A stretch of DNA of 45,302 nt from Candidatus Zixiibacteriota bacterium (lineage in GTDB: Bacteria > Zixibacteria > MSB-5A5 > CAIYYT01): contig JBECKX010000203.1 of NCBI GenBank assembly GCA_040235515.1, positions 1 to 45,302 on the forward strand, in the 5' to 3' direction. This document shows, piece after piece, positions 9,821 to 42,430 of this stretch (its first letter is position 1; each line of letters begins with the position of its first letter). The position numbers and the translations under genes are program-made. The notes below the pieces were generated by a model. The model was not told the origin of the DNA. It saw nothing but the letters and a program-made list of their open reading frames with translations, and ran no database searches.

Positions 9821-10840
9821 ATGCTACAACTACGCAAGTATCTGATTTTAGCGCTTTGTGCGGTGGTGATGACCGCGGCGGTCGCCAATGGAAGCGTGAC
9901 GCAGAAGCAGATGTCGGAAATGAAGTTGAGTGGTCCGATGAAGGTGATCGCGAAGCTTTTCGGCTGGGATGGTCCGCGTTACACGGTGGAGTATTATCAG
10001 GGTCACCAGATGCGCACCGACTATCTGAATGACAAGGGTGAGAAGGTGGAGCGTTCGGAGATTGTGGATCTCGACAAGGAGCTTTTCATCAGCGTCAACC
10101 ACAAGAAGAAGCGTTACTCGCAGATGACGTTCGCGGAGTGGCGTGAGATGATGCGCAAGGCGGTCGAGGACATGAAAGCGCAGATGCCGGAGAATAGCGG
10201 CGAGGGGATGACCGGAGAGGGGTATCCGGAGCTTAGCTACAACTTCAATATTGACCACACCGGCTCGGTGGAGGATATCAATGGTTTTCAGGCCGAGAAG
10301 GTAATCGTCACCGCGACCTCGTCGATGGCGGAAGATGCGGCGGCGCAGGGTGATGCGGAAGCGGCCGCGATGGTGGTTGAGATGACGACCTGGGTGGTGG
10401 AGGAACTCTACGGCACGGCGGAGATGGCGGAGTTCGCGAAGCTGCTGGTGGAAAAACTCGGGATGGATCCTGAGGTTGAGGATATGAAGAATATGCTTGA
10501 GATGGTGTTCGTCAGCAATCCGGCTGCCGGGGGTGCGATGAGCCAGATCAGCGAGGCGCAGGAGCAAGTTGGCGGGCATAGTGTGAAGACGATCGTGAAG
10601 ATCAAGAATGCGCCTGCGGCGGAGTCTGAATCAGAGGCGGAAGCTGAGGAGGAATCGGGGGGCGGCTCAGGATTGTTCGGGAAGCTTGGAGGCAAGTTCA
10701 TGGGTGGCGGAAAGAAGGATAAGGATCAGGGGCCTGCGGTTCTGATAGAGACGCATTCGGAGAGGTTTGCGATCGATGATGCTCATATTGACCCATCGAT
10801 GTTTGCGCCGCCGGAGAAGTACAAGCTGGAGAAGAAGTAG
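9821..10840 (+). CDS. Secreted hypothetical protein (DUF4412-like beta-rich fold)
   Basis: Signal peptide and AGGAGAGG SD. Pattern MRTD..IVDLDK..VNHKKKRYSQM, TG..EDINGFQAEK, ending F.PP..YK. Confidence 0.75.
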   Translation: MLQLRKYLILALCAVVMTAAVANGSVTQKQMSEMKLSGPMKVIAKLFGWDGPRYTVEYYQGHQMRTDYLNDKGEKVERSEIVDLDKELFISVNHKKKRYSQMTFAEWREMMRKAVEDMKAQMPENSGEGMTGEGYPELSYNFNIDHTGSVEDINGFQAEKVIVTATSSMAEDAAAQGDAEAAAMVVEMTTWVVEELYGTAEMAEFAKLLVEKLGMDPEVEDMKNMLEMVFVSNPAAGGAMSQISEAQEQVGGHSVKTIVKIKNAPAAESESEAEAEEESGGGSGLFGKLGGKFMGGGKKDKDQGPAVLIETHSERFAIDDAHIDPSMFAPPEKYKLEKK

Positions 10841-10873
10841 GGGGTGGGCGTACGGAACCAAAGTAAACAAGGC

Positions 10874-10909
10874 AACGGGCACAGTGATGTGCCCGTTTTT
10901 TGTTTTTTT
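10874..10909 (+). terminator. Intrinsic terminator between convergent genes
   Basis: aacgggcaca-gtga-tgtgcccgtt followed by a long T tract. Confidence 0.85.
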
Positions 10910-10923
10910 GGGTGTATCTAGGA

Positions 10924-12348
10924 CTAGTTCGTCGTGGGGTCTTGGCTGGTGACGGTGGCGATTGCTTGTAGCGTGCGCGCGACATCGGTTTCATCGGTGC
11001 GCCAGTTGACCACGCTGACCCGCATCGCTTTCTTGCCGCGCCAGGTCGTGCCGCTGAAGAATGCTTCGCCGGTAGCATTGATTCGCCTAATCATAGCATC
11101 GGTGCGATTGTCGTGATCGGCGTCGGTGGCGGTTGGAGCGGGATCGAGGAACCGCACCAGGCCTTGATTGAAGTGGGGGCGCCACAGCACCTGCGCATTG
11201 GGTAGTTTGCCGATGCCGTCGACAATGGCGCGGGCTGAGTCGCAGCAGCGATCAACCATCTGCTCCAGCCCGCTGCGACCCAGCTCGCGCAAGGCAGCAT
11301 AGACTGTAAAGCCGCGAGCACGGCGGGAGAAGTCGGGATTCCAGTCAACCTGATCGCGCGCGAGCCCTCGGTCGGCGATGTAAGAGGCGCTGGCGGTCAT
11401 CGAGGCGCGATGCGCGGCAGCATCCCGGATGAATGCCATCCCGCAATCAAACGGCACATTGAGCAGCTTATGCCCATTGGTCACCCAACTGTCCGCCAGC
11501 TCGACTCCTTCGAGGAGGTGTCGTTTGCTGCGGCTGAGTCTGGCGAATAAGCCGAAGGCGCCGTCGACGTGCACCCAGGCGCCGGCTTCTTTGGCGATCG
11601 GGATGACTGTCTTGAAGTCATCGAAGGCGCCAATGTTGAGGTCAGCGGCATTCAGCACCACAACCATAGGGCCATCACATCGGGCTAACTCTTCGCGAAG
11701 TGCGTCATGGCGAATGCGACCATCGTTGTCGGTGGCCACGGGTAGCAGTTGTTGTGCGCCGATCCCGAGGAAGTTGATGGCACGATCAACGGTCTTATGG
11801 CGTTCTGCGGAAGCGAGCACTTTGAAGGGAGGCGCAGCAAACAACCCGCGATCGTTGACATCCCAGCCACGCGCCTGCAGTAATGCCTGCCGTGCCGCCG
11901 CGAGCGCGGTGAAGTGGGCCATCTGACAACCGGTGGTGAAGGCAAAAGATGCCTCGCGCGGCAGCTCGAATAGCTGTTTCAGCCAGTCGCCCGCTACCTC
12001 CTCGGTGACGGCAGCCGCCGGGGCGACGGCATACATGCCGGCGTTTTGATCCCAGAGAGAAGTAAGCCAGTCGGCAGCCATAGCGGCGGGCAAGGTACCG
12101 CCGATTACCCAGGCGAAGAAGCGGCTGCAGGGCGTGCCGAGCAGACCGCCCTCAGCGGCTTTCACCAACTCATCGATGATGGTTACCGGATCGACGCCCT
12201 CGTCTTTCAATTCGACGAAGAACCGGGCGCGCAGTTCCTCCGGGGTTGTTGTGGTTGCCACGGAACGATCGTTGATCCGGAATAGAAAATCCTCGGCGTG
12301 CTCCAGGACACGCTTGAGGACAGCGTAATGTTGTGGGTCGGTTCTCAT
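10924..12348 (-). CDS. PLP-dependent group II amino-acid decarboxylase (aromatic-L-amino-acid/aspartate decarboxylase family)
   Basis: RFFAWVIGG, WVHVDGAFG, DSWVTNGHKLLNVP (PLP lysine), FSRRARG and RVSVVNWRT motifs. Confidence 0.92.
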   Translation of the reverse strand: MRTDPQHYAVLKRVLEHAEDFLFRINDRSVATTTTPEELRARFFVELKDEGVDPVTIIDELVKAAEGGLLGTPCSRFFAWVIGGTLPAAMAADWLTSLWDQNAGMYAVAPAAAVTEEVAGDWLKQLFELPREASFAFTTGCQMAHFTALAAARQALLQARGWDVNDRGLFAAPPFKVLASAERHKTVDRAINFLGIGAQQLLPVATDNDGRIRHDALREELARCDGPMVVVLNAADLNIGAFDDFKTVIPIAKEAGAWVHVDGAFGLFARLSRSKRHLLEGVELADSWVTNGHKLLNVPFDCGMAFIRDAAAHRASMTASASYIADRGLARDQVDWNPDFSRRARGFTVYAALRELGRSGLEQMVDRCCDSARAIVDGIGKLPNAQVLWRPHFNQGLVRFLDPAPTATDADHDNRTDAMIRRINATGEAFFSGTTWRGKKAMRVSVVNWRTDETDVARTLQAIATVTSQDPTTN

Positions 12349-12617
12349 GTGGTATATCCGTCACTCGCTTTCACAGGTTGACCAGCTATGTAGTGGGATT
12401 GTGCGGCACGGCTGGATGAGAGAAGCGCATCAGGGGTGTCTGCCGCGAGCCGGGTGTTGTAGATTTCCTGAGCCTGCCAGCGGTGCTCACCGCGCTTCTC
12501 TGCAAGGTGGTATAAGGGACTAAGGGTTGCATGGCGGGGAAGCTACGGCAACATGTAAGATTCGAAAACAGTTTTTTGAGCCGAAGATGAGGCGTCAAAC
12601 TCGAGATAGAGAAGTGT

Positions 12618-12646
12618 TTGGAGCGGGGTGGGCAATTCGTTATTTT
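12618..12646 (+). promoter_or_regulatory. Candidate sigma70 promoter of gatE-gatD
   Basis: TTGGAG-N17-TATTTT just upstream of gatE. Confidence 0.4.
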
Positions 12647-12660
12647 CTGTGCCGCCGTGA

Positions 12661-14667
12661 ATGAGAGAGGAACAACGCGAGATCATGAGTTATAGATTCG
12701 ACCCACGTGAAAACTACGAGCAAAGCCGAGAGAGGGTAGGTTGGGTGCCGCTTGAAGAGGCGACGCCGGAGACTTACGAACGGATCGGCTACAAGTCGGG
12801 CCTTGAAGTCCATCAGCAGTTAAAGACGAAGAAGAAGCTGTTCTGCCGTTGTCCGGCGGGGATTTACCAGGACCCGGATGACTATGATGCAGAGGTTATC
12901 CGGCATATGCGTCCTACTTTGAGTGAGCTGGGTGAGTATGACGGGACGGCCTTGATGGAGTTCAAGACCAAGAAGAACGTGATCTATCGCATCAAGGGGC
13001 AGACGGCGTGCACGTACGATATCGATGATACTCCGCCGTTTCCGCTCGATCGCGAAGCGCTTGAGTATGCTCTGAAAATCTCGCTGATGCTGAAGTTGAA
13101 CATCGTGGGTGAGCTTCATATCACGCGCAAGCAATACCTTGACGGCAGCATTCCAACCGGGTTTCAGCGCACCGGGATCATCGGGATCGAGGGTGAGATT
13201 CCACTGCGGAACAAGAAGGTGCGAATCATGCAGTTGAGCATCGAAGAGGATGCTTGCCGGGAGGTCTCGGATGTCGGGCACTGGCGGATATTCATGACAG
13301 ATCGGCTGGGAATGCCGTTGATAGAGACGGTGACCTATCCGGAATTGCTTACACCCTGGGAGTGTGCTGAGGCGGCGCAGTATCTTCGTTTTCTGGCGCG
13401 CAGTTCGGGGGTCGCTCGTGTTGGAATCGGCGCGGCGCGAGAGGATGTCAATGTGAGCGTGCGCGGCGGGACGCGGGTGGAGATCAAGGGGGTGTCCCAC
13501 ATCAAGTTGATCCCGCGATTGACGCATACGGAGGCATTCAGGCAGGTGGCGTTGTTGCAAATTCGGGATATCTTGAGCGAGCGGATAAAGAACCGGGATG
13601 AGTGGCAGATAGCGAGCGCGGAGTTAGAACCGACGCTGCTACCGCGTGAACATAAGGCTTTCCAGCGGCTACGGGCACGGGGTTGGATCGTTGCGGCGGT
13701 TAACCTGCCGAAGTTTGGCGGCATACTCTCCTACTTCACGCAGCCGGACAAGATGTTTGCGAATGAACTCAGCGATCGGCTGAAGGTGATTGCGTGCCTG
13801 GAACGGCCGAACCTGCTGCACTCGGAGCAGTTCTCGATCGAGAATGAGCAGGTGGAGCTGGAAGCGATCCGCAAGTTGCTTAAGTCCGCTGACGAGGACG
13901 CGCAGGTGGTGGTGTGGGGACCGCCGGAGGATGTCGAGACCGCGATCGGTGTAATCGAAGAGCGCTGCCGGCTGGCGATGGAGGGGGTTCCGAATGAAAC
14001 GCGCAAGTCGCTGGCGGATGGTACGACGGTGTTCGAACGAGTGTTGCCGGGACCGGATCGGATGTATCCCGATACCGATAGTGCGCCGATTCCGATTCGC
14101 GACAGTCTGATCGAAGATATTCGAAAAACTTTACCACTCGAAGTTGTCGATCGGGTGAAGCAGTTGAGGGAGTGGGGTGCGCCGGAGGACACGCATACTT
14201 ATATCCTGCGCAATAACCTGGTGCCACTGATGGAGCGGATCATCGCTGATTGCGGACATGAGCCGAAATTCGTGTCGACCTTTCTCGGGCACACGCTCAA
14301 GAGCATTGAGGGACGAATCAAGGCGGGCACCGATTTCTCTTACGAGCGGGTTTACGAGCTATGTCGCTTTGCCCAGCGGGAGGGGCTGACACGGGATATT
14401 CTGGCGAAGATGCTGCCGGTAGTGTATCGGCATCCCAATATGCATTTTGATTCGGTGCTGACGACGATCGAGTTCCACCCGCTGACATTCGACGAAGTGT
14501 TGGAGTTTCTGCCGTCCCTGGTGCGCAAGGCGAAGGCGATCGGGACGACGGCGAATTCGGGTGCTGATGTGCGCTGGATCATGGGGCAATTGCGGCGGAA
14601 GGCATGCGGCAACGTGGCTCTCCCGGCATTGAGGAATCGTGTAGAGGAGGAGCTGAAGCGTGGCTGA
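12661..14667 (+). CDS. gatE: Glu-tRNA(Gln) amidotransferase subunit E, archaeal type (start may be ATG 12685)
   Basis: KSGLEVHQQL..KKLFCRCP, RPTLSELGEYD..A..E, DGSIPTGFQRT, EEDACR, DRLGMPLIE, EDVNVSVRGGTRVEIKGV, GVPNETR and PGPDRMYPDTD. Has the central insertion and 668-aa length of GatE rather than GatB. Confidence 0.93.
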   Translation: MREEQREIMSYRFDPRENYEQSRERVGWVPLEEATPETYERIGYKSGLEVHQQLKTKKKLFCRCPAGIYQDPDDYDAEVIRHMRPTLSELGEYDGTALMEFKTKKNVIYRIKGQTACTYDIDDTPPFPLDREALEYALKISLMLKLNIVGELHITRKQYLDGSIPTGFQRTGIIGIEGEIPLRNKKVRIMQLSIEEDACREVSDVGHWRIFMTDRLGMPLIETVTYPELLTPWECAEAAQYLRFLARSSGVARVGIGAAREDVNVSVRGGTRVEIKGVSHIKLIPRLTHTEAFRQVALLQIRDILSERIKNRDEWQIASAELEPTLLPREHKAFQRLRARGWIVAAVNLPKFGGILSYFTQPDKMFANELSDRLKVIACLERPNLLHSEQFSIENEQVELEAIRKLLKSADEDAQVVVWGPPEDVETAIGVIEERCRLAMEGVPNETRKSLADGTTVFERVLPGPDRMYPDTDSAPIPIRDSLIEDIRKTLPLEVVDRVKQLREWGAPEDTHTYILRNNLVPLMERIIADCGHEPKFVSTFLGHTLKSIEGRIKAGTDFSYERVYELCRFAQREGLTRDILAKMLPVVYRHPNMHFDSVLTTIEFHPLTFDEVLEFLPSLVRKAKAIGTTANSGADVRWIMGQLRRKACGNVALPALRNRVEEELKRG

Positions 14668-16042
14668 TCTATTTAAGGGATACAAGGGTGCGGCGCGGGG
14701 AGTCCTCACCGATTTCAATGTGCGGGTTTGGGGGCAGGTGACCGTCGAGTCGAGCCGGGGGACCTTTAAGGGTATCCTGCTGCCGAGGAGTGAGAATGAT
14801 GACGACCAGCACCTGGTGTTAAAGCTGCCGACCGGTTACAACGTGGGGGTTGCAGTTTCGACGATCACCAACATCGTTGAGGATGGGTACAAGGAAGCTC
14901 ATTATAAGATTCCTGAGAAAGAATTTCCGGTTACGCCGAACCTGCCACATGTCAAGCTACTGGGCACGGGCGGCACGATTGCATCGCGGCTTGATTATCG
15001 CACAGGGGCGGTGATTCCGGCATTCTCGCCGGGTGAGCTTTATGGCGCGGTACCGGAACTAGCGGATATCTGCAACCTGACAACAGAGAAGCTGTTTGCG
15101 GTGTTCTCGGAGAATATGGGACCGGAGCAGTACAAGACGCTGGCGGTTGCGATCGGGCAGGAGATCGAGAAGGGGATTGATGGGATTGTGATCGGGCATG
15201 GTACTGATACAATGCACCATACGGCCTCGGCGTTGGCGTTCATGATCCAGAATTCACCGATTCCGATCGTGATGGTTGGCTCGCAGCGATCATCCGATCG
15301 GCCGTCATCTGATGCGGCACTCAACCTGATGCATGCTACCAAGACGGCTGCCGAGTCTGATATTGCTGAAGTGATGGTGTGTATGTTCGGGCCGACCTCC
15401 GATGAGTATGGCTTGCTGCACCGGGGGACACGGGTGCGGAAGATGCATTCATCATACCGTTCGACGTTCAGGACGATTGGGGATGTGCCGTTGGCGATGG
15501 TGGATCGCAAGAAGATCACGCCGATCAAGCAGAACTACAACCACCGCCGCAAGGATCGCAACGTCAAGATTACGCCGACATTCGAGGAGAAGGTTGCGAT
15601 AGTTTACTACTACCCGAACATGCAGCCCGACATTATCGAAGCGTTGATTGATAATGGTTACAGGGGGATCGTGATCGCGGGCACCGGGTTGGGGCACATC
15701 AATAAGCCGCTCTACCCGGCGATCGAGAGGTGTCAGCGTGAGGGGATCGCGGTCTATATGACTGTGCAGACACTGTGGGGTTTTGTGCATATGTTCGTGT
15801 ATGACACCGGTCGTGATCTGATGGCTAAGGGGATCATCCCGCTGGGGAATATGCTGCCGGAGGTAGCGTATTGCAAGCTTGGTTGGGCGATGGGGCAGAC
15901 GCATGACCTGGAGAAGGTGAAAGAGTTGATGCTCACCAATATTGCAGATGAGATTACCGACCGCGAACCGCACAATGGATATTTGATTTTCCAGGGTGGC
16001 GTACCGGAGATCGAGCGATTCTTGCGGACGGTGCATAAGTAG
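14660..16042 (+). CDS. gatD: Glu-tRNA(Gln) amidotransferase subunit D (asparaginase-like glutaminase with N-terminal beta domain)
   Basis: N-terminal GILLPR..LVLKLPTGYNVG domain, then TGGTIASRLDYRTGAV, HGTDTM, GSQRSSDRPSSDA, RGTRVRKMHSS, GTGLGH and MLPEVAYCKL. GTG start with GAGGAGG SD overlaps the gatE stop. Confidence 0.95.
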   Translation: MADLFKGYKGAARGVLTDFNVRVWGQVTVESSRGTFKGILLPRSENDDDQHLVLKLPTGYNVGVAVSTITNIVEDGYKEAHYKIPEKEFPVTPNLPHVKLLGTGGTIASRLDYRTGAVIPAFSPGELYGAVPELADICNLTTEKLFAVFSENMGPEQYKTLAVAIGQEIEKGIDGIVIGHGTDTMHHTASALAFMIQNSPIPIVMVGSQRSSDRPSSDAALNLMHATKTAAESDIAEVMVCMFGPTSDEYGLLHRGTRVRKMHSSYRSTFRTIGDVPLAMVDRKKITPIKQNYNHRRKDRNVKITPTFEEKVAIVYYYPNMQPDIIEALIDNGYRGIVIAGTGLGHINKPLYPAIERCQREGIAVYMTVQTLWGFVHMFVYDTGRDLMAKGIIPLGNMLPEVAYCKLGWAMGQTHDLEKVKELMLTNIADEITDREPHNGYLIFQGGVPEIERFLRTVHK

Positions 16043-16198
16043 GGGTGGGCTTGGCGTTTGACGGTCCGCACGAGGTCAGGTATACCTGGCGCGTGATATG
16101 AGCTGGCTTCACCTCGCTGACGCGGCAACTAAACATTCTGCCGTGCCAGATCGTTATCCTGATTGAACTTATTATCTGACAAAATGGGAGAGTATGAT

Positions 16199-17098
16199 TT
16201 GATCTTGCGAGCGCTTAAGATACTCGGTCTGGTTGTGCTTCCGCAGTTTCTTGGAGTGCACACCATAGTGGCGCAACCGTGTCCCCTGGAATTCAAGATT
16301 GAGGCAGAGCAGGCTGAGGTCGAACCATACGAGAGTGTCTGGGTACGTTTGAGCCTGACCAACATTGGCGACACTGCGATCGATGTCAGACCATTGCAGC
16401 CCGATCTGTGGTACGTCGACGTGTCAGTGCTCGACTCCGTGGGGGATGAGCTTTACTACACAGGTTTACACGGGGAGATAGGAGGAGATGGTGAATGGAT
16501 CACTCTCATGCCAGACACCACCCTGTCGCGCTGGATTGATATCTGCGAGACTCACGGTCGGCATCTGTCCAATAATGTTGGACTATCAGTGATGCCAGCG
16601 GGTTTCTATCGCTTGGTGTGCAGATTCTCTGGCGGACGATTCGGATGGATAGAATCGAATGAAGTGACTTTCCGGGTGAACTCCGAGGCCACTGATTCCT
16701 TGCTTTGGCAAGAACTCCGTGAGGTTGATGTCCAGTTCAATCATGCCGAGTTTCGACGGAGTAAGGTGGCGGGCTATCTTAAGCTGGCGAATGAACACCC
16801 GACCAGTACGCTGACCGAGCGAATATTGCTCTTGCTGCAGGTTCTTGACTCCGAGTCGGCGGTCGAGTACGCGCATCGCATCGTTGAAAACTTTCCAAAC
16901 TCGCACGATATTGCGCGGTGCTTCGGTTACGTCTACTGGGTGAGCAATAGGGAGCACGATGCCGGCATCGTCCACGATTTTTTGCGAGTGGTGCGCGCCT
17001 CGTACGATTCCACGCAGGCAGGCAGGCTGGCCACGGAGCTGTTGTCTCCGGCAAACTCAGGGGGGAACATAAGCAAGATTCTGGATGCGTTTCAGTAG
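16199..17098 (+). CDS. Secreted hypothetical protein (Ig-like N-domain, helical C-domain)
   Basis: Open frame from 16163. TTG 16199 has a GGAG SD and gives a signal-like N-terminus. V.L.LTN.G...I strand pattern, then helices with HP.S/FP.S turns. Confidence 0.65.
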   Translation: MILRALKILGLVVLPQFLGVHTIVAQPCPLEFKIEAEQAEVEPYESVWVRLSLTNIGDTAIDVRPLQPDLWYVDVSVLDSVGDELYYTGLHGEIGGDGEWITLMPDTTLSRWIDICETHGRHLSNNVGLSVMPAGFYRLVCRFSGGRFGWIESNEVTFRVNSEATDSLLWQELREVDVQFNHAEFRRSKVAGYLKLANEHPTSTLTERILLLLQVLDSESAVEYAHRIVENFPNSHDIARCFGYVYWVSNREHDAGIVHDFLRVVRASYDSTQAGRLATELLSPANSGGNISKILDAFQ

Positions 17099-17319
17099 GG
17101 TGTGGGCAAGACCGATTGGTGCTTGATGCTGAGGTCAATCAAGCCTCACCCCCGGGACCCGCTCCTTGCGGATTAGTAGGAGGCCAGGCATTCCTGCCTG
17201 ATCGGCTACGCAACAACTTGCCGTGGTGCGAAGAGTGGTAACAGTACCTGTCGCGTCGACAAATCGGCAATTGTACGGAGTGCTTGCATAAAGTGACAGC
17301 ACTCCCATCTTAGGAATAA

Positions 17320-18066
17320 ATGAGTCACACCTTCCTCTCCCAATTTCCCTACACCTGCAAACTTGACTGGGGTGTGCTTGGTGCTAAGCGTGCTGCTGAA
17401 CGGGGAGAGGTAATTTTGATTGTGGATGTATACAGCTTTTCGACCACGGTTGCGTATGCCGCTGCGAGAGGAGCTTCCGTGATACCGTGTGGCAAGTCTG
17501 ATAACCCAGTTGAGATTGCGAAAAGTGTGGGAGGCACTGTGGTTGTGAATCGCAGGGATGTTCCGACGTTGGGCAAGTATTCGCTTTCACCGGAGACGAT
17601 GCTTAACGCTCAGCCGGGTGAGAAGATCATTCTGCCATCCCGCAACGGTGCTAACTGCAGTCGGGCGGCTCAAGGTGCTCCGCACGTAATTGCCGGGGCG
17701 TTCGTCAACTTAAAGGCAGTCGGAGAGTGCGTTAACAAGCTGCTGGAGACCGAGAAATGCGGAGTGACTATCATCGCCTGCGGCGAACGTGAGAAGGAAG
17801 ATGATCACCAGCTTCGTGTTGCGATTGAGGATTATTTGGCAGCCGGCGCGATTGTCTCGATGGTCAAGGGGGAAAAGTCGCCTGAAGCGGAGGTTTGTGA
17901 GGGAGCTTACCTCAGCAGGCGATCCAGGCTCAAAGAGATCCTGTGGGAGTCGACCAGCAGCCGGGAGTTGCGTGAGGCAGGGTTTGCGCGGGATGTGGAG
18001 TTGTCGATTGCAGTGGATGCTTTCTCTATAGTGCCGTTGCTCAGGAAAGGAGCATATTCCGGGTAG
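17320..18066 (+). CDS. comB: 2-phosphosulfolactate phosphatase (ComB) family protein
   Basis: IVDVYSFSTT, SLSP, LPSRNG, IIACGER and IEDYLAAGAI motifs. Confidence 0.85.
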   Translation: MSHTFLSQFPYTCKLDWGVLGAKRAAERGEVILIVDVYSFSTTVAYAAARGASVIPCGKSDNPVEIAKSVGGTVVVNRRDVPTLGKYSLSPETMLNAQPGEKIILPSRNGANCSRAAQGAPHVIAGAFVNLKAVGECVNKLLETEKCGVTIIACGEREKEDDHQLRVAIEDYLAAGAIVSMVKGEKSPEAEVCEGAYLSRRSRLKEILWESTSSRELREAGFARDVELSIAVDAFSIVPLLRKGAYSG

Positions 18067-18133
18067 TCCGAATGGTCCTATTTTTGGGCGGCCTCAGCTC
18101 TCAATGCCGCGTAAAATCCAACCTACTGCGGTT

Positions 18134-18156
18134 GGGCGAATGCCATTCGCCCCTAC
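18134..18156 (-). repeat. GTAG-type REP-like palindrome
   Basis: The minus strand reads GTAGGGGCGAATGGCATTCGCCC: a GTAG foot plus an imperfect palindrome. Confidence 0.65.
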
Positions 18157-18274
18157 GGGCATACTTTGGTCTGATATCCTCCTAATTTCCCGCAAAATCC
18201 GCAAACATCTGTCGTGTGTTCCGTATAACTAATTGGACGCTCTGTTGTCGGCTGTGTGACAGTTGACATAATTA

Positions 18275-18302
18275 TTGACAGGGCGGTTTTTTTTGCTACC
18301 TT
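18275..18302 (+). promoter_or_regulatory. Sigma70 promoter of the hrcA operon
   Basis: TTGACA-N16-(TGc)TACCTT immediately upstream of CIRCE. Confidence 0.7.
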
Positions 18303-18304
18303 CT

Positions 18305-18331
18305 TTGGCACTCTGGACGGCAGAGTGCTAA
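18305..18331 (+). promoter_or_regulatory. CIRCE operator (HrcA binding site)
   Basis: TTGGCACTC-N9-GAGTGCTAA, one mismatch from the TTAGCACTC-N9-GAGTGCTAA consensus, upstream of hrcA. Confidence 0.95.
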
Positions 18332-18405
18332 TCCGATTCGCCTAAGTTGTTGTAAGATGGCATTTTGCTAAACGCCGTCTGATGAAGCCATAAGGAATTC
18401 AAGGT

Positions 18406-19440
18406 TTGGCCAAGCAATTTGAGTTGAACGAACGCGAGCGCGCCGTTCTGGCGGTGCTGATCGACCATTATATCCGTACCGCCGAGCCGGTCGGATCGCG
18501 TGTCATTGCGACCAAGTTTAACCTTGGTGTCTCGCCGGCGACGGTGCGCAATACGCTCGCCGACCTTGAAGATCGCGGCTTAATCGAGCAACCGCACACA
18601 TCGGCGGGACGGGTGCCGACAGAGGTTGGTTACCGTTTGTATGTTGACCATCTGCTAAAAAGTGAACGTCTCAGCAAAAACGACCGCGAGAAGATCAAGC
18701 GGTTGCTGACGGTTGACTATGGCGCGGTAGAGGATGTGCTCGACCAGACGGCGCGGGTGTTGGCGCAGGTGAGCTCGCAGCTTGGCGTGACGGTGCTGCC
18801 GAAGTTCGAGAATGCGATCCTGACCAAGATAGACCTGGTTCCGGTCACCGACACGAAGATGATGGTGATTATCGCCGTAAAGTCAGGCTTTGTGCGGACG
18901 CTCCTGGTTGAGGTTGAGGCGCAGGTGGATCAGAACAGTCTGAGTGACACGGTACAGATTCTCAACGAGAAGGTCTGCGGGTTGTCGCTCGGGGAGATTC
19001 GAAATACGATCAGGGAGCGGTTGCATGGAGTGAGTAATGGCGAGCCGCAATTGCTCAAGCTCTTCATCGACCAGAAAGAAACGATCCTTGATGACACCAG
19101 TTCTCCGACAATCCACACCGAGGGAACATCGAACATCATCTCGCAAAAGGAGTTCCAGGACCCGGAGAAGTTGCGGGAGTTTATATCACTACTTGAGGAA
19201 CGCAAGAGCCTGGTGCATCTGTTGAAGGGGAGTTCGCTGCCGGATGGAATCAGTGTCACGATCGGCACCGAATCGAACATCGGTGGGTTGCGGGATCTGT
19301 CGGCGGTGATTAAGACATACAAGATCGGTCAGACGCATGGTTCGATTGGAATCATCGGTCCGACGAGAATGGAATACGCAAAGCTCATCTCCGTCGTTGA
19401 TTACACGGCGAAGGTGTTATCGGAGATACTGTCACGCTGA
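18406..19440 (+). CDS. hrcA: Heat-inducible transcription repressor HrcA
   Basis: YIRTAEPVGS, SPATVRN, QPHTSAGRVPT and IGIIGPTRMEY motifs; TTG start. Confidence 0.98.
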   Translation: MAKQFELNERERAVLAVLIDHYIRTAEPVGSRVIATKFNLGVSPATVRNTLADLEDRGLIEQPHTSAGRVPTEVGYRLYVDHLLKSERLSKNDREKIKRLLTVDYGAVEDVLDQTARVLAQVSSQLGVTVLPKFENAILTKIDLVPVTDTKMMVIIAVKSGFVRTLLVEVEAQVDQNSLSDTVQILNEKVCGLSLGEIRNTIRERLHGVSNGEPQLLKLFIDQKETILDDTSSPTIHTEGTSNIISQKEFQDPEKLREFISLLEERKSLVHLLKGSSLPDGISVTIGTESNIGGLRDLSAVIKTYKIGQTHGSIGIIGPTRMEYAKLISVVDYTAKVLSEILSR

Positions 19441-36417: not shown

Positions 36418-36548
36418 GTTATGCAGATTTAATTTCCGCCGGACACAACCGATTTCATTCCCCTAAAACTCTATTGGACGGTATCTTGTACTTCTGCGTA
36501 CAATCAGTGACACGGACGGTGACACTGGCAGAACCGGGTACAGTTGGG

Positions 36549-39500
36549 ATGAATCGAACTATCAAACTCCGCATAATCGCCAGCCGCGCAGTATTCGCAC
36601 TATCACTGGTTTGTTTGACAACGAGCCTGTGGGCGGCGAACGATTACCACCCCACCAGACTGATCGTTAAGTTTCGCGATTTTCCAGCTGCGAGCACGCT
36701 TGCAGGAACACTCGCCAGCGCAGGGGCCAGCGGCTATGAACCGGTCGTGCCGGCAACGGCGCGGGTGACGAAGTCACGCTCGGAGTTGGAGAAGAGTTTC
36801 GTGTTTACGTTCGAAGATTCACTGGCGCGGAGGGCGGCGCAGGCGGAGCTTGAGACTGATAATGCGGTGCTGAGCGTGGAGCTGGACTACAAGATGCAGC
36901 TATTTCACGATCCGTTGTATCAGTATCAGTGGGGACTTGAGAACAACGGGCAGTCGTACCCCGGTATCATTCGCGTCGACGGACCCGGCAATGACACTCT
37001 TAAGTTCACCAACGGAATTGCCGGAGAAGATATCAGGCGCGCCGCGGTGGCGGAGTTGCCGACTGACCGCGACAGGGTGCTGGTTGCTATCATCGATACC
37101 GGCGTCGACTACGAACACGTCGATCTGGCGGCGAACGTGTGGCGAAATCCGCTTGAAGCCTCGGGGCTGCCGGGTGTGGATGATGACCTGGATGGGCTGA
37201 TCGATGATGTCTATGGCTACGACTTCTCGGGCGATTCGACCGATGTTGTCAATGTGATCCCCGACCCGCTCCCGAAGGACCTGATCGGGCATGGCACTCA
37301 CGTAGCCGGAATCGTCGGGGCGGTTACGGGGAATGGGATCGGGGTCGAAGGGGTGGCGTCCTCTGTCGAGATCATGTGTTTAAAGATCTTTCCGAATGCA
37401 TTCACATCCGTCTCCACCAAAGCGATCATTTATGCAGTAGATCATGGCGCGAAGGTGATCAATGCCTCGTGGGGATCGCCGTACTTCAGCACGATCCTGA
37501 ATGATGCGGTCAAGTATGCCCGCAGCAACGGCTGTCTGTTCGTGGCGGCTTCCGGGAACTCAGGAGACTCATCGCCATTCTATCCTGCCGTGTTGCCGGA
37601 TGCGATTACCGTGGGCGCCTGCAATTCATCCGGCATGGCGACCGACTTTTCGACTTACGGGAGTTGGGTGGACCTGTCGGCGCCGGGGCGTGATATTCTT
37701 TCGCTGCGGGCGAGGGGCACCGACCTGTATGCGGATGCCGGCGAACCGCGGATCAGGATCATCAACAGCAATTACATCCTGGCGGATGGCACATCGATGG
37801 CTGCGCCCCACGTTGCGGGAGCTGCGGCTTTCCTGCTCTCATACTCGCCCGGATTGAGGGTCGACAGTCTGCGCAACCTGTTGATGGCGACGGCTGATCA
37901 GATAGCAGACCCGCAAGGGAGGGAGCAGGGGGAATACAGCATTTACACCGGCTATGGCCGGATTAACCTCGAACGAGCTACCGGGGTGCTTTCGGGCAGT
38001 TATGCCGAGATCAGTTCACCTATCCCTAACTCTGTTCAGAAGGGGATGGTTAAGATAGCTGGCTCCGCATACTCAGCCGATGGTGAAGAGTATCTGCTTG
38101 AGGCAAAGCCGGCATCAGAGGGTGTCTGGATCGAGATCGCGCGCGGAAATGCGGCGGTGATCACGGAACAACTTGCCGAGTGGGATTCTTCTCCCTATGA
38201 TGGTCCGACACCGTTGCGCCTCAGGGTCGGGGAGGGAATTGCCTTCACTACGACGATCCGACTTCTCAACAACACACGCTTTGCGATCGAGAGTCCGACC
38301 GAGAGCGATACGATTCGTTCCTCGGTTGAGATTCGGGGTACGGCGACTGCACCAGACTTTCAAGCTTACGATCTTTACTTCTATCCCGACACGGAGCCGA
38401 AACAACCGGTTTTCATTGAGCATGGCACCGTTCCGGTCTTTTCAGAGTTGATCGAGGATTGGAGCGTTGGTCCGGTACGCAGCGGAAGTGGTACACTCGA
38501 ACTGCGGCTGATCGCCGGCGGCGTGGTGCATGAGGCGTTTCAGCCTGTTGTGATCAAGACACTGCTCAACGACGACTATCCGGTTGCCCCTGCGACGCGC
38601 CCACACTTCGTATCGAAGTCCGCGGATCTTAATGGCGACGGCAAGCTGGAATTGATTACGGGCGGACAGGCGGGAACGATTATTCTCGACCCGGAGTCGC
38701 TTGAGACCTACACGCTCGACCCGAATGGGACGGTTTATCAGTCGTCGCCCGCGGTCTACGACTTCAACGGGGATGGTAAGGATGAGCTGGCGATTGTCTC
38801 TGACTCAGGATTGACGGTAGTCGATGGAGCGGGCAACAACCTCCCCGGCTGGCCACGCGTGTTTCCGGTGGGTGCGCAGTTTCTCTCATTTCCGACGCCT
38901 CATGTGAGCGATATCGATGGGGATGGCAGCCCTGAGATCGTGGTGCTGAATTCTAACGGCAGTTTTTATTGTTTTCGCGCGGATGGCAGCGCCTACTTCT
39001 ACAGCCACAACGGAAAATTCGCCAGTGTCAACGACACCGAGCTACCACGGCAGTTCAGTGGTGCGGTGCCGGCGTTTGTATTCAGTTACGATTTTGACCG
39101 GGATGGATTCCGCGATATTGGTGGCGCTTATGGTGTTTCGGGCCGGCGTGGTGGAATCTACCTCTTCTCGGGGAAGAACGGACAGCCGCTCTACCCTGAG
39201 ATCGGTGCGCGGGTGATATCGACCGGACCACCATTTGGTGCAGTACTGGCGGACTTTGACTTCGACGGTGAACCGGAGATCGCTTTCGCGCATTACAACG
39301 ATGACTACTCGATCACGGTTCGCATCATCGAGTCGAACGGCACCGACCTGCCGGGCTGGCCGCGGCACTATGACGACAAGTTTCAGTACCTCTCACCCTA
39401 TCCGGCTGCGGGTGACCTGGATGGGGATTCGATTCCGGAGTTGGTTGTTGCATTCAGCGCACCACTAGATGGCGGAGAGATTTATGTGTGGCACGGTGAC

Positions 39501-40235
39501 GGCACTCCCTGGCTGGAGTCGGAGCTTGGCCGCAATGATGGTTTCCTGGTTGCGGTGAATAATGCTTTATCGAATCCCATGATTCTCGACACCGACAATG
39601 ACGGTGAGCCGGAAATCATCTGCCGTGCCGGTGCGACGTTGTTTGCCAACGCGGAAAAGGTTTATTCGTTCGAACTGGATGGCAGAATCACGCGCGGCTG
39701 GCCGCTTTACACCTTTGCGCCTGCCGGCACGGTGCTTTATTCACCCAATACTCCGCTGGCGGGGGACTTCGATCAGGATGGGCTGCTCGAACTTTATATG
39801 GGGGCGTCCGATCTGAAGCTTTACCTCTGGGATTTGCCGACGGTAGCTTCGGAATCGGCAATAGTCTGGAACGGGTTCCTGAATGATTCGCAGAACAGCG
39901 GGATGCTGCCATTTCTTGCCAAGCCGACTGCGCCACCGAGCGAGCCACCTTTGCCGACCAGCTTCAGACTCGCACAAAACTATCCCAACCCATTCAATGC
40001 CACGACCGCGATCGAGTTTGACCTGACTGCGGAAGTCGATACGAAGCTGGAGGTGTTCAACACGCTCGGACAGCGGGTCAGGACGATTGTGAGGGGGCAG
40101 ATGCCTGCCGGCTTTTATCGTTACGAGTGGGATGCCAACGATGACAGGGGAGAAAGGGTTGCGTCCGGCGTCTATTTTTATAGACTCAGCTATGGTGACG
40201 CGCAAGAAACCCGGACGATGGTGTTGCTGAAGTAG
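36549..40235 (+). CDS. Secreted S8 subtilase with Ig-like domains, FG-GAP/VCBS repeats and a C-terminal PNPFN sorting-type domain
   Basis: Catalytic triad IIDTG / HGTHVAG / GTSMAAPHVAG, repeated D(L/F)DGDG..E motifs, FRLAQNYPNPFN...MVLLK tail. ATG 36549 gives a signal peptide. Confidence 0.93.
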   Translation: MNRTIKLRIIASRAVFALSLVCLTTSLWAANDYHPTRLIVKFRDFPAASTLAGTLASAGASGYEPVVPATARVTKSRSELEKSFVFTFEDSLARRAAQAELETDNAVLSVELDYKMQLFHDPLYQYQWGLENNGQSYPGIIRVDGPGNDTLKFTNGIAGEDIRRAAVAELPTDRDRVLVAIIDTGVDYEHVDLAANVWRNPLEASGLPGVDDDLDGLIDDVYGYDFSGDSTDVVNVIPDPLPKDLIGHGTHVAGIVGAVTGNGIGVEGVASSVEIMCLKIFPNAFTSVSTKAIIYAVDHGAKVINASWGSPYFSTILNDAVKYARSNGCLFVAASGNSGDSSPFYPAVLPDAITVGACNSSGMATDFSTYGSWVDLSAPGRDILSLRARGTDLYADAGEPRIRIINSNYILADGTSMAAPHVAGAAAFLLSYSPGLRVDSLRNLLMATADQIADPQGREQGEYSIYTGYGRINLERATGVLSGSYAEISSPIPNSVQKGMVKIAGSAYSADGEEYLLEAKPASEGVWIEIARGNAAVITEQLAEWDSSPYDGPTPLRLRVGEGIAFTTTIRLLNNTRFAIESPTESDTIRSSVEIRGTATAPDFQAYDLYFYPDTEPKQPVFIEHGTVPVFSELIEDWSVGPVRSGSGTLELRLIAGGVVHEAFQPVVIKTLLNDDYPVAPATRPHFVSKSADLNGDGKLELITGGQAGTIILDPESLETYTLDPNGTVYQSSPAVYDFNGDGKDELAIVSDSGLTVVDGAGNNLPGWPRVFPVGAQFLSFPTPHVSDIDGDGSPEIVVLNSNGSFYCFRADGSAYFYSHNGKFASVNDTELPRQFSGAVPAFVFSYDFDRDGFRDIGGAYGVSGRRGGIYLFSGKNGQPLYPEIGARVISTGPPFGAVLADFDFDGEPEIAFAHYNDDYSITVRIIESNGTDLPGWPRHYDDKFQYLSPYPAAGDLDGDSIPELVVAFSAPLDGGEIYVWHGDGTPWLESELGRNDGFLVAVNNALSNPMILDTDNDGEPEIICRAGATLFANAEKVYSFELDGRITRGWPLYTFAPAGTVLYSPNTPLAGDFDQDGLLELYMGASDLKLYLWDLPTVASESAIVWNGFLNDSQNSGMLPFLAKPTAPPSEPPLPTSFRLAQNYPNPFNATTAIEFDLTAEVDTKLEVFNTLGQRVRTIVRGQMPAGFYRYEWDANDDRGERVASGVYFYRLSYGDAQETRTMVLLK

Positions 40236-40252: not shown

Positions 40253-42430
40253 ATGAAGCGATACACGCAGTACAGAATCACCTGCCTCCTTGCAGCTTTG
40301 TTGTTGCTGGTGAGCGGGGGAGTCGCACAGGCACAGTTGACCGCTGACTATTTTCACCTGGTGGCGGAGCGGTCGATCGGAGCTGTGGTGGATATTGCGA
40401 TGGACGATCAAGCGCTGTACCTGCTTGCCCCCAACGAAATCAGAAAAGTAAACCTGGGAGATCCGGGCGCTTCGCTGGTGCCAACTCGACTGCGAGCGAC
40501 CGGAATGGCGTTCGAGCAGATGATCATCGCTGGGGATGACTTATGGCTCTGGTCTCAAGCTGGCAGGCTGGGTAGGGCGGCATTGGCGGGGCCGGCGGCG
40601 GAAGTGCTCCAATCGTGGCAACTGGAGGATTCGGTTTACGCGGTCATTCCGGTTGGCGGATTTGTGGCTGTGGCTTCAGGTTTCAACGGTGTACAGCTGT
40701 ACCTTCTGGCCGGGGACGAGTTGAAGCCAATGCAGAGTCTGACGAACGGGGTGCATTACTCCGGGCTGGCAGCGAGTGGTCAATTGCTGGCAGCGATCGA
40801 TGACTATAACGGGGTGGAGTTATATCATTTTGCGGATGACTCACTGGAGTTGATCTCGGAGTTTCTTTCGCTGGATCCGCTGTTGGAGGTGGCGATTGCA
40901 GAAGTCCCGTCGGGTGCACGATTGGTTGCGACGAACGGACTGAATGATCTCATGGTTTGGGATGTCAGCTCCTCCGGGGTGTCGATCACGAGCAAAGTGA
41001 TAGAAACGGATTTCGTCGTCACGGCGCTTACCGCAGCAGGGAGTCAAATCTTGATTTCGGGCAGGGGAGGGGAACTGATGATCTTGCCTGAAGGGGGAGA
41101 CGCGCCGGTTACGGTGGAAACTCCGGGTGTGGGTGCGAGACGAATGGTTTCCAGCGGAGGTACCGGGGAGTTCAGCGTAGGGCTGCTTGATCCCTACGCG
41201 AATGTTACGGTCTGCGATGTAGCCGGATCACAACTCAGCCGGGCTCGCTGGATTGTTACGCCGCAAGCGCCGAGTTCGGTAGCGCTGACTGGGGATGGCG
41301 CGCTTGTGGGCACGGTCAGCGGTATCGCTCAGCTCTATCAGACGGGAAGTGACTTGATTCAGTTTCCGCTCTGGGAGAATGGTGGCGGATTTGACAAGCT
41401 TGCAGAACTTGATTCGTTGTTGTTTGGCATCTCAAAATCGCAACAAAGGTTGGAGGCGTTTGCTGCGCGTAGCGGCAAGCTGCGGCGGGTGGCATCCCTG
41501 GAATTGTTGCAACCACCGATAGATATTATTCCGTTGGGGCAACAATCCGGTCGCGTGGCGCTTGCAGTGGTTTTGACCGGTCAGGTACAGGTAGTCGAGT
41601 TCGATCAACTCGATGGCTCATTTGCCTCGATCTGGAATGTGAACCCGCAGTTCAAGATTGCCGTAGCCGCCGTAGGGGAGTCTTCGCTGGTCATCCTCTC
41701 ACAGGAGGGTGAGGTCTACCGGGTGAGTTTCTCAATCAGTTCCGGCCCGCTCGGGATGCCGATTCTCGGAGTACTGGATAGATATCCCACTGCGGCTGCA
41801 GTTGCGGATGACTTCGTTGCGATCGGGTATGCCGACAAATTGATGATCTACCGGGTAGATAGCGAACAGCAGCAATTTGAGTATCTGCTGAGTCCGCTTG
41901 CGATTACAAACGTGATAAGGCTGCAATTCGATCCGCAGAGTGAGGTTCTGGTGATCGGGGGACGGCATGGAGTGCAGTTCGCTGATTTCTCTCATCCAGC
42001 GGAGTTGGGAGTAGTGTACAGTGTGCCGGGCAGTGATGCTGTGCTCGACCTGGCCTACCGGGATGGACGACTGTGTGTCGTTTCGCGCGCTGCGCTGCAA
42101 CTGTTCGAGGCGAGCGGAGTAGCACCGGAGCGCAGACTGCCTGATGAGCAGATCGCTGCTGAAGAGTTTGCTCCGAACCCGTTTAACAACGCCTCCGAGG
42201 TAACGATTTCGCTGTCGCAGGAGTTGATCGGCAAACCAATTACTTATGAGATTGTAAACATATTAGGGGAGCGGGTGGTGGAGTTGCGGGAAACCGTGAC
42301 GCGCCCGCAGGAGACGTTCCGGTGGGAGGGGAGGTCGGAGCGCGGGACGACGGTAGCTTCCGGGGTATATTTCTTCCGAGCCTCCGTTGCCGGCAACGTA
42401 TTAGTACGGAAGCTCGTTTATCTCAAGTGA
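40253..42430 (+). CDS. Secreted beta-propeller-like (LVIVD-type) protein with C-terminal PNPFN domain
   Basis: Signal peptide, repeated VA.G..GV.LY strands, APNPFNN...SGVYFFR...KLVYLK tail. Confidence 0.8.
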   Translation: MKRYTQYRITCLLAALLLLVSGGVAQAQLTADYFHLVAERSIGAVVDIAMDDQALYLLAPNEIRKVNLGDPGASLVPTRLRATGMAFEQMIIAGDDLWLWSQAGRLGRAALAGPAAEVLQSWQLEDSVYAVIPVGGFVAVASGFNGVQLYLLAGDELKPMQSLTNGVHYSGLAASGQLLAAIDDYNGVELYHFADDSLELISEFLSLDPLLEVAIAEVPSGARLVATNGLNDLMVWDVSSSGVSITSKVIETDFVVTALTAAGSQILISGRGGELMILPEGGDAPVTVETPGVGARRMVSSGGTGEFSVGLLDPYANVTVCDVAGSQLSRARWIVTPQAPSSVALTGDGALVGTVSGIAQLYQTGSDLIQFPLWENGGGFDKLAELDSLLFGISKSQQRLEAFAARSGKLRRVASLELLQPPIDIIPLGQQSGRVALAVVLTGQVQVVEFDQLDGSFASIWNVNPQFKIAVAAVGESSLVILSQEGEVYRVSFSISSGPLGMPILGVLDRYPTAAAVADDFVAIGYADKLMIYRVDSEQQQFEYLLSPLAITNVIRLQFDPQSEVLVIGGRHGVQFADFSHPAELGVVYSVPGSDAVLDLAYRDGRLCVVSRAALQLFEASGVAPERRLPDEQIAAEEFAPNPFNNASEVTISLSQELIGKPITYEIVNILGERVVELRETVTRPQETFRWEGRSERGTTVASGVYFFRASVAGNVLVRKLVYLK

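Follow-up and report, generated by a model that had tools for sequence, protein, structure and literature searches.

A 45,302-nucleotide contig from an uncultured sediment bacterium of Candidatus Zixiibacteriota (assembly GCA_040235515.1, contig JBECKX010000203.1), here called the window, carries adjoining genes for GatE and GatD, the subunits of an enzyme described as the archaeal Glu-tRNA amidotransferase (Glu-AdT) of cells without glutaminyl-tRNA synthetase (GlnRS) (PMC2330236 and PMC9499178, both available in part). Within a large bacterial GatDE clade that is annotated in databases but unstudied, the window operon is an ordinary member. On balance, we favour the view, drawn from sequence, that the pair encodes a working Glu-tRNA(Gln) amidotransferase that the cell retains next to GlnRS, as a parallel or clean-up route. 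One feature sets this genome apart: its tRNA(Gln) begins with the archaeal-type pair A1-U72, found here in its own genus and the sister genus. The window is contig C18 in full (45.3 kb), from a draft genome of 3.59 Mb (G000; 218 contigs, completeness rating 100%).

Identity of GatE and GatD

The two genes overlap by 8 nt, the GTG start of gatD lying at 14660 and the TGA stop of gatE at 14665-14667:

12661-14667, + strand: gatE, the kinase/transamidase subunit acting on tRNA, 668 aa from the ATG at 12661, or 660 aa from the ATG at 12685, where the database model starts
14660-16042, + strand: gatD, 460 aa from a GTG start, the asparaginase-type glutaminase subunit
14644-14652, + strand: Shine-Dalgarno-like GAGGAGGAG within the 3′ part of gatE, separated from the gatD GTG by 7 nt, as read from the sequence

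A first-pass annotation, made from the DNA alone, had described two intact genes with this overlap and a Shine-Dalgarno sequence before gatD, and coordinates and sequence agree with it. It had also credited GatE with an N-terminal extension. The extension exists; because the database model begins at the second ATG, it is ∼28-36 residues long relative to GatE of Methanothermobacter thermautotrophicus.

GatE scored above the cut-offs of both NCBIfam models of its family (NF003107, 467.5 bits, cut-off 456; TIGR00134, 394.5 bits, cut-off 319.55), while every GatB model failed, with cut-offs of at least 315 bits and a best score of 130.3 (cut-off 338). The protein aligned over its full length with the M. 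thermautotrophicus subunit (2D6F_C, E-value 4.8e-91), in which the catalytic Mg2+ site consists of His15, Glu157 and Glu184 (PMC2330236). The corresponding residues of the window protein, H51, E195 and E222, do not vary across 44 aligned GatE sequences from bacteria and archaea. By sequence, Pfam detected the catalytic core PF02934 alone. An AlphaFold model (predicted local distance difference test, 90.5; predicted template modelling score, 0.88) had its best Protein Data Bank matches in GatE chains, namely 1ZQ1_C of Pyrococcus abyssi (E-value 4.6e-47, template modelling score 0.84 on the target) and 2D6F_C/D, ahead of all GatB chains. Residues 481-667 were modelled confidently as a helical C-terminal region; the model also gave weak matches to aspartyl-tRNA synthetase (AspRS), and a domain is present at the position of the AspRS-like insertion. 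The domain layout of GatE, comprising a cradle core, the AspRS-like insertion, and helical and tail domains, is thus present in the predicted structure. In a tree, the genome's own GatB formed a long outgroup branch and the window GatE fell within an 84-row clade with a support of 100.

GatD likewise exceeded the cut-offs of its family models (NF003217, 515 bits, cut-off 310; TIGR02153, 509.5 bits, cut-off 324) and aligned end to end with 2D6F_A of M. thermautotrophicus (E-value 1e-119). Catalysis by GatD involves a Thr nucleophile and a Thr-Lys-Asp triad (PMC2330236). The window protein contains T103-G-G-T106, H180-G-T182-D183 (HGTDT) and R260-K261-M262-H263, all of them conserved at 98% or above among 56 GatD sequences from bacteria, as are 168 of its 460 positions across phyla. 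We assign the nucleophile and the triad to T103 of TGGT, T182-D183 of HGTDT and K261 of RKMH. An asparaginase subfamily model, TIGR00519, also matched (381.6 bits). A free-standing type I L-asparaginase (AnsA) was ruled out by the higher scores of the GatD equivalogs, by the overlap with gatE and by the N-terminal domain, which Pfam identifies as GatD_N (residues 26-72, 50.2 bits) in addition to the Asparaginase N and C domains. The earlier assignment to GatE and GatD, as opposed to GatB and AnsA, is borne out by these scores, and the N-terminal domain and three motifs on which it drew for GatD are all present.

A widespread bacterial clade

GatE is common in the phylum of this genome, which is Zixibacteria by the names of its homologues. 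In a sample of 151 phylum genomes at 80% completeness or more, GatE was classed as present in 103, single-contig genomes among them; 96 of the proteins are near full length and 7 are fragments at contig ends, and in 80 of the 151 genomes GatE scored over the curated cut-off. Where gatD is not adjacent to gatE, it was found elsewhere in all five genomes searched. The closest homologues of the window GatE (59-66% identity) come from genomes labelled Zixibacteria, Aminicenantes and Bacteroidetes and are named GatE by NCBI, as the first-pass annotation had thought possible for bacterial homologues.

When one genome per species was searched, at least 600 matching stretches came up, 597 of them confirmed; GatE relatives are thus encoded by no fewer than 597 species genomes, which represent over a dozen phyla of bacteria. 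Labels among the best 80 matches were Myxococcota, Bacteroidota, Ignavibacteriota, Chlorobiota, Planctomycetota, Acidobacteriota, Calditrichota, Cloacimonadota, Fermentibacterota, Krumholzibacteriota, KSB1, WOR-3 and others. Two of these 80 (L088 and L123) are labelled Thermoplasmatales/Thermoplasmatota; their GatE belongs to the bacterial clade, and their gatE and gatD lie on opposite strands. The neighbours in L088 (an aldolase, glnA and a Fic-like protein) are not diagnostic of either domain, so this may be mis-binning or a real archaeal holder.

Of the best 80 matches, 77 were long enough to enter a tree of 123 rows. Together with the window GatE and six named homologues they formed one clade (Shimodaira-Hasegawa-like approximate likelihood ratio test, SH-aLRT, 100), within which phyla are intermixed. 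Among the 67 loci with both genes, 59 have gatE ahead of gatD in the same orientation. The E-before-D order and the distinct bacterial clade had both been anticipated, and a tree with archaeal sequences now supports the latter. A transfer between domains private to this lineage, which had also been suggested, does not fit these data, because the pair has a long history and a wide distribution in bacteria.

In a quick tree, a Heimdallarchaeota GatE was sister to the bacterial clade with a support of 98. An Asgard origin of the clade was not adopted: a tree in which all 38 archaeal rows were held together had a log-likelihood 47.9 higher (approximately unbiased test, p = 0.91), so the sister relation is not established, and the bacterial clade may or may not have arisen by transfer from archaea.

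The phylum also holds a second, distant GatE lineage, 41-51% identical to the window protein and usually unlinked to gatD. In one family (L236, L237 and L238, from G084, G066 and G078) the gene for this second type is separated from gltX by 1.6-2.9 kb and from the tRNA-Glu(CUC) gene by 3-5 kb, with small opposite-strand genes in between and gatD elsewhere; G084 has two genes for glutamyl-tRNA synthetase (GluRS).

tRNA(Gln), parallel routes and the role of GatDE

The genome has a single tRNA-Gln (UUG; C13:2643-2717, locus L010), which ARAGORN folds with A1-U72 and G73. Archaeal GatDE recognises A1-U72 (PMC2330236, PMC9499178) and the Staphylococcus aureus GatCAB recognises U1-A72 (PMC2330236); by analogy, the lineage's only tRNA(Gln) looks like a substrate of GatDE and not of GatCAB. 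The orthologous tRNA was read in 60 further genomes of the phylum, giving 61 in total, of which 42 bear GatE. A1-U72 occurred only in the own genus (G000 and G043) and in three sister-genus genomes (G003, G009 and G017). U1-A72 was found in the other 56, including one sister-genus genome, the two genomes from the family's third genus and all 19 genomes without GatE. For the five remaining sister-genus genomes, alignment extents suggest A1.

A tRNA-Glu(CUC) (G000:C209:2837-2910, L011), drawn by ARAGORN with an 8-bp acceptor stem (or with G1-U72 and A73), was considered as a tRNA dedicated to GatDE and rejected. Near-identical copies occur in 140 of the 151 genomes whatever their GatE status, and it is therefore the phylum's normal tRNA; in L091, one of 80 loci compared, a similar gene precedes gatE by 166 nt.

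Other routes to Gln-tRNA and Asn-tRNA are present in the same cell. The genome encodes GlnRS (on C8; 741.5 bits), asparaginyl-tRNA synthetase (AsnRS), a single bacterial GluRS (C126:463-1872) and two AsnB-type asparagine synthetases over cut-off, and, separate from gatE-gatD, adjacent gatB and gatA on C132 and gatC on C10. This survey does not support GatDE as a needed third route. Across the 151 genomes, GatE, GatB and GlnRS combine as follows (raw counts over related genomes, which are not a statistical test):

GatE, GatB and GlnRS: 51/151
GatE and GlnRS, no GatB: 44/151
GatE and GatB, no GlnRS: 8/151
GatB and GlnRS, no GatE: 15/151
GatB only: 16/151
GlnRS only: 17/151
GatE only: 0/151

All 24 genomes without GlnRS have GatB, and all 61 without GatB have GlnRS.

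By homology to the archaeal enzyme, GatE would bind mischarged Glu-tRNA(Gln) and phosphorylate the glutamyl side chain with ATP and Mg2+. GatD would hydrolyse Gln or Asn, and the ammonia would tunnel to GatE to yield Gln-tRNA(Gln). The mischarged substrate would presumably come from the single GluRS, and GatDE would serve as a parallel or clean-up route beside GlnRS and not as the sole one. Since A1-U72 is the first pair of the lineage's only tRNA(Gln), this tRNA would be seen by GatDE and not by GatCAB, and GatCAB would be left for tRNA(Asn).

Several observations weigh against this reading. With GlnRS, GatA, GatB, GatC, AsnRS, GluRS and two AsnB in the genome, GatDE is redundant on paper. 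It is the sole route to Gln-tRNA in none of the 103 GatE-bearing genomes, and all five GatDE genomes of other phyla that were checked also have GlnRS or GatB. GatE is commoner with GlnRS (95/127) than without it (8/24), as counted over related genomes with no statistical test. An archaeal-like tRNA(Gln), which the first-pass annotation had named as one possible requirement, is present in this genome, whereas 37 of the 42 GatE-bearing genomes have U1-A72; the clade as a whole therefore cannot follow the archaeal rule of recognition. As to the protein itself, GatE exceeds the NF003107 cut-off by only 11 bits, its Pfam GAD and YqeY (GatB_Yqey) domains were undetected even at an E-value of 5, and the subclade of seven rows to which it belongs has a long stem (0.7 changes per column).

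Nor could mischarging be read from GluRS. Arg358 of the Thermus thermophilus enzyme is a marker of tRNA discrimination (PMC2978374). It maps to R367 of the genome's own GluRS and is Arg in all 81 GluRS from 80 genomes, 23 of which come from 23 genomes without GlnRS (15 without GatE and 8 with it). Because such genomes must mischarge tRNA(Gln), the marker was rejected as uninformative in this phylum, and mischarging of tRNA(Gln) cannot be inferred from it. A divergent GluRS (∼465 bits, against ∼520-570 elsewhere) with a distinct motif near Arg358 occurs in seven GlnRS-less genomes of two genera (G011, G012, G019, G024, G026, G029 and G045; loci L199-L202, L180, L227 and L228) and may be a form adapted to tRNA-Gln.

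Much of this would also suit a repurposed amidotransferase that has kept its kinase and glutaminase chemistry and acts on another substrate, for example Asp-tRNA(Asn) or a non-translational aminoacyl-tRNA. We regard such a change of substrate as possible, if rather unlikely. It would accommodate an enzyme that is never the only Gln-tRNA route, that is commonest together with GlnRS and that mostly faces a U1-A72 tRNA-Gln, as well as the sequence divergence of the GatE insertion and tail regions and the long branch of the window subclade. Its asparagine version fares poorly, and the hypothesis that GatDE makes Asn on tRNA was rejected: AsnRS is present in 151 of 151 genomes, G000 itself has two AsnB over cut-off, GatE is commoner in genomes with AsnB (74/99) than in those without (29/52), and the 18 genomes that lack both AsnB and GatB are split between 10 with GatE and 8 without. 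In addition, a clash has been modelled between the GatE insertion domain and AspRS (PMC2330236), and the predicted fold keeps a domain at that place. Against other substrates stands the want of a conserved partner gene, since only gatE and gatD recur across 80 loci. A separate 370-aa ORF of the genome (G000:C199:22498-23466, − strand) matches the catalytic part of AsnRS only (154.6 bits, model positions 103-435) and may be an AsnA-like asparagine synthetase paralogue.

Retention of the Glu-tRNA(Gln) reaction could also be taken further. A change from U1-A72 to A1-U72 may have moved tRNA(Gln) from GatCAB to GatDE and created a live second route to Gln-tRNA, with Asn as a possible amide donor. 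This is a speculative proposal that we consider doubtful, and it is conditional on the bacterial GatDE reading A1-U72 as the archaeal enzyme does.

It is very unlikely that the operon is a redundant relic, intact by chance and drifting to loss without a present function. Such a relic would fit the full redundancy on paper and the patchiness of GatE, which 48 of the 151 genomes were classed as lacking. Against it, both genes are under strong purifying selection: between G000 and G043, two species of one genus, gatE has 0.113 nonsynonymous differences per nonsynonymous site (pN) against 0.718 synonymous differences per synonymous site (pS), and gatD 0.033 against 0.681, with 81% and 94% protein identity, respectively. 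Ratios based on these values, ∼0.05 and ∼0.02, are rough because synonymous sites are near saturation. The highly conserved GatD positions, 168 in number, and the retention of GatDE in 103 phylum genomes argue in the same direction.

That the operon is a mis-assembled or mis-binned archaeal fragment, or a very recent transfer into a single genome, is so improbable that it can be dismissed: apart from the draft state of the 218-contig genome no support for it was found, whereas GC content is flat across the locus, G043 has the same operon, as do relatives assembled into a single contig (G137, G033 and G099, for example), the window GatE groups with bacterial and not archaeal GatE, and short independent contigs from three runs tile positions 10500-18500 without joints or loose ends, at an identity of at least 99%, and include pieces spanning 12348, 14660 and 16042-16163 (a weak support, given low depth and a source sample that is possibly included). 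The chimerism at the flanks that the first-pass annotation had asked to be checked was thus not seen.

Genomic setting and relation to known systems

The genes flanking the operon are bacterial and include bamD, nadD, polA, coaE, hrcA, dnaK, dnaJ, prmA, xseA, dxs and genes for proteins with type IX secretion tails; the contig is a real bacterial chromosome. The earlier description of these flanks stands for bamD, polA and hrcA with its CIRCE element (controlling inverted repeat of chaperone expression). It does not for mutS, as no MutS match was found among the 28 window ORFs of at least 150 aa that were scanned. Other features near the operon are:

10924-12348, − strand: group II pyridoxal phosphate (PLP)-dependent decarboxylase, divergent from gatE, with weak matches to diaminobutyrate/aspartate decarboxylase models, far under cut-offs
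12349-12660, no strand: intergenic region between the divergent PLP-dependent decarboxylase gene and gatE, without a recognised leader RNA
18305-18331, + strand: CIRCE-like inverted repeat 75 nt upstream of hrcA, which dnaK and dnaJ follow; one mismatch to what we take to be the consensus

No Rfam match reached the gathering score in 12349-12660, where the one match was at chance level (E-value 0.6), and consensus scans for promoters and terminators gave sites no more numerous than in shuffled sequence. No RNA dataset containing the locus was found among the public runs listed. Elsewhere in the window, a 1253-aa subtilisin-like protease (36474-40235, + strand) adjoins a 725-aa protein (40253-42430, + strand), and both carry type IX secretion sorting tails.

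Gene neighbourhoods of GatDE loci are not conserved. When the ORFs of the 80 loci were clustered, the only families to recur were gatE, in 71 loci, and gatD, in 60, and the window neighbours (the decarboxylase, a 311-aa ORF and a ComB-like protein) were not seen beside the operon on the 7.8-kb contig of G043. Sporadic linkage nevertheless hints at a connection to glutamine or Glx-tRNA. glnS adjoins gatE divergently in G047 and G112, from another family of the phylum, and in a Myxococcota locus (L093, 656-2497), and is convergent with gatD in a Bacteroidetes locus (L104, 9291-10973). In L112, again one of 80 loci, a tRNA-Gln(CUG) precedes gatE by 70 nt, and the tRNA-Glu(CUC) of L091 has been described above. 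glnA-like genes adjoin gatE or gatD in L088 (8008-9309), L124 (4913-5941) and L139 (4912-5940).

Compared with archaeal GatDE (2D6F of M. thermautotrophicus and 1ZQ1 of P. abyssi), the window pair is alike in both subunits end to end, in the Mg2+-site and asparaginase-type residues, in its predicted fold and in the A1-U72 pair of the genome's own tRNA-Gln. It differs in belonging to a separate bacterial clade (SH-aLRT 100), known here from sequence, most members of which face a U1-A72 tRNA-Gln, and in an insertion and tail that have diverged too far for Pfam to recognise. It also departs from the description of a Glu-AdT acting in the absence of GlnRS, as the host is a bacterium and the cell has both GlnRS and GatCAB. 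With bacterial GatCAB, in turn, it shares the catalytic core PF02934, GatB being a paralogue of GatE, and a three-step chemistry common to GatCAB and GatDE (PMC2330236). Unlike GatCAB, its glutaminase partner is a homologue of asparaginases and not an amidase; GatB models reach at most 130 bits on the window GatE, and the genome has its own separate gatCAB.

The nearest parallel for the apparent redundancy is found in Deinococcus, Thermus and Bdellovibrio, which have GlnRS, AsnRS and a seemingly surplus GatCAB (PMC4206432, available in part). There, as here, an amidotransferase is kept despite both direct synthetases. Their GatCAB reportedly serves tRNA-dependent asparagine synthesis. The case differs from ours in the type of enzyme and in that G000 has two AsnB, and the asparagine explanation is unsupported in this phylum.

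In the parts available, reviews up to 2022 restrict GatDE to archaea (PMC2330236, from 2008; PMC9499178, from 2022), and the former terms it an "archaeal signature protein"; no paper describing a bacterial GatDE was found in the literature searched, whose coverage leaves out most subscription journals. The archaea-only claim enters arguments on the early evolution of the genetic code. Bacterial GatDE almost always occurs alongside GlnRS, GatCAB or both, and therefore represents either a second, unexplained path to Gln-tRNA or an enzyme with another job. The window adds no new kind of system. The presence and absence of the routes across the phylum rule out simple "replacement" and "asparagine" explanations, and the genome offers a test bed in which all three routes and an A1-U72 tRNA(Gln) coexist, with close relatives that have U1-A72. 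Should bacterial GatDE read A1-U72 in the archaeal manner, the tRNA(Gln) swap would be a case of tRNA identity rewired in nature, from one amidotransferase to another, in a GlnRS-bearing bacterium.

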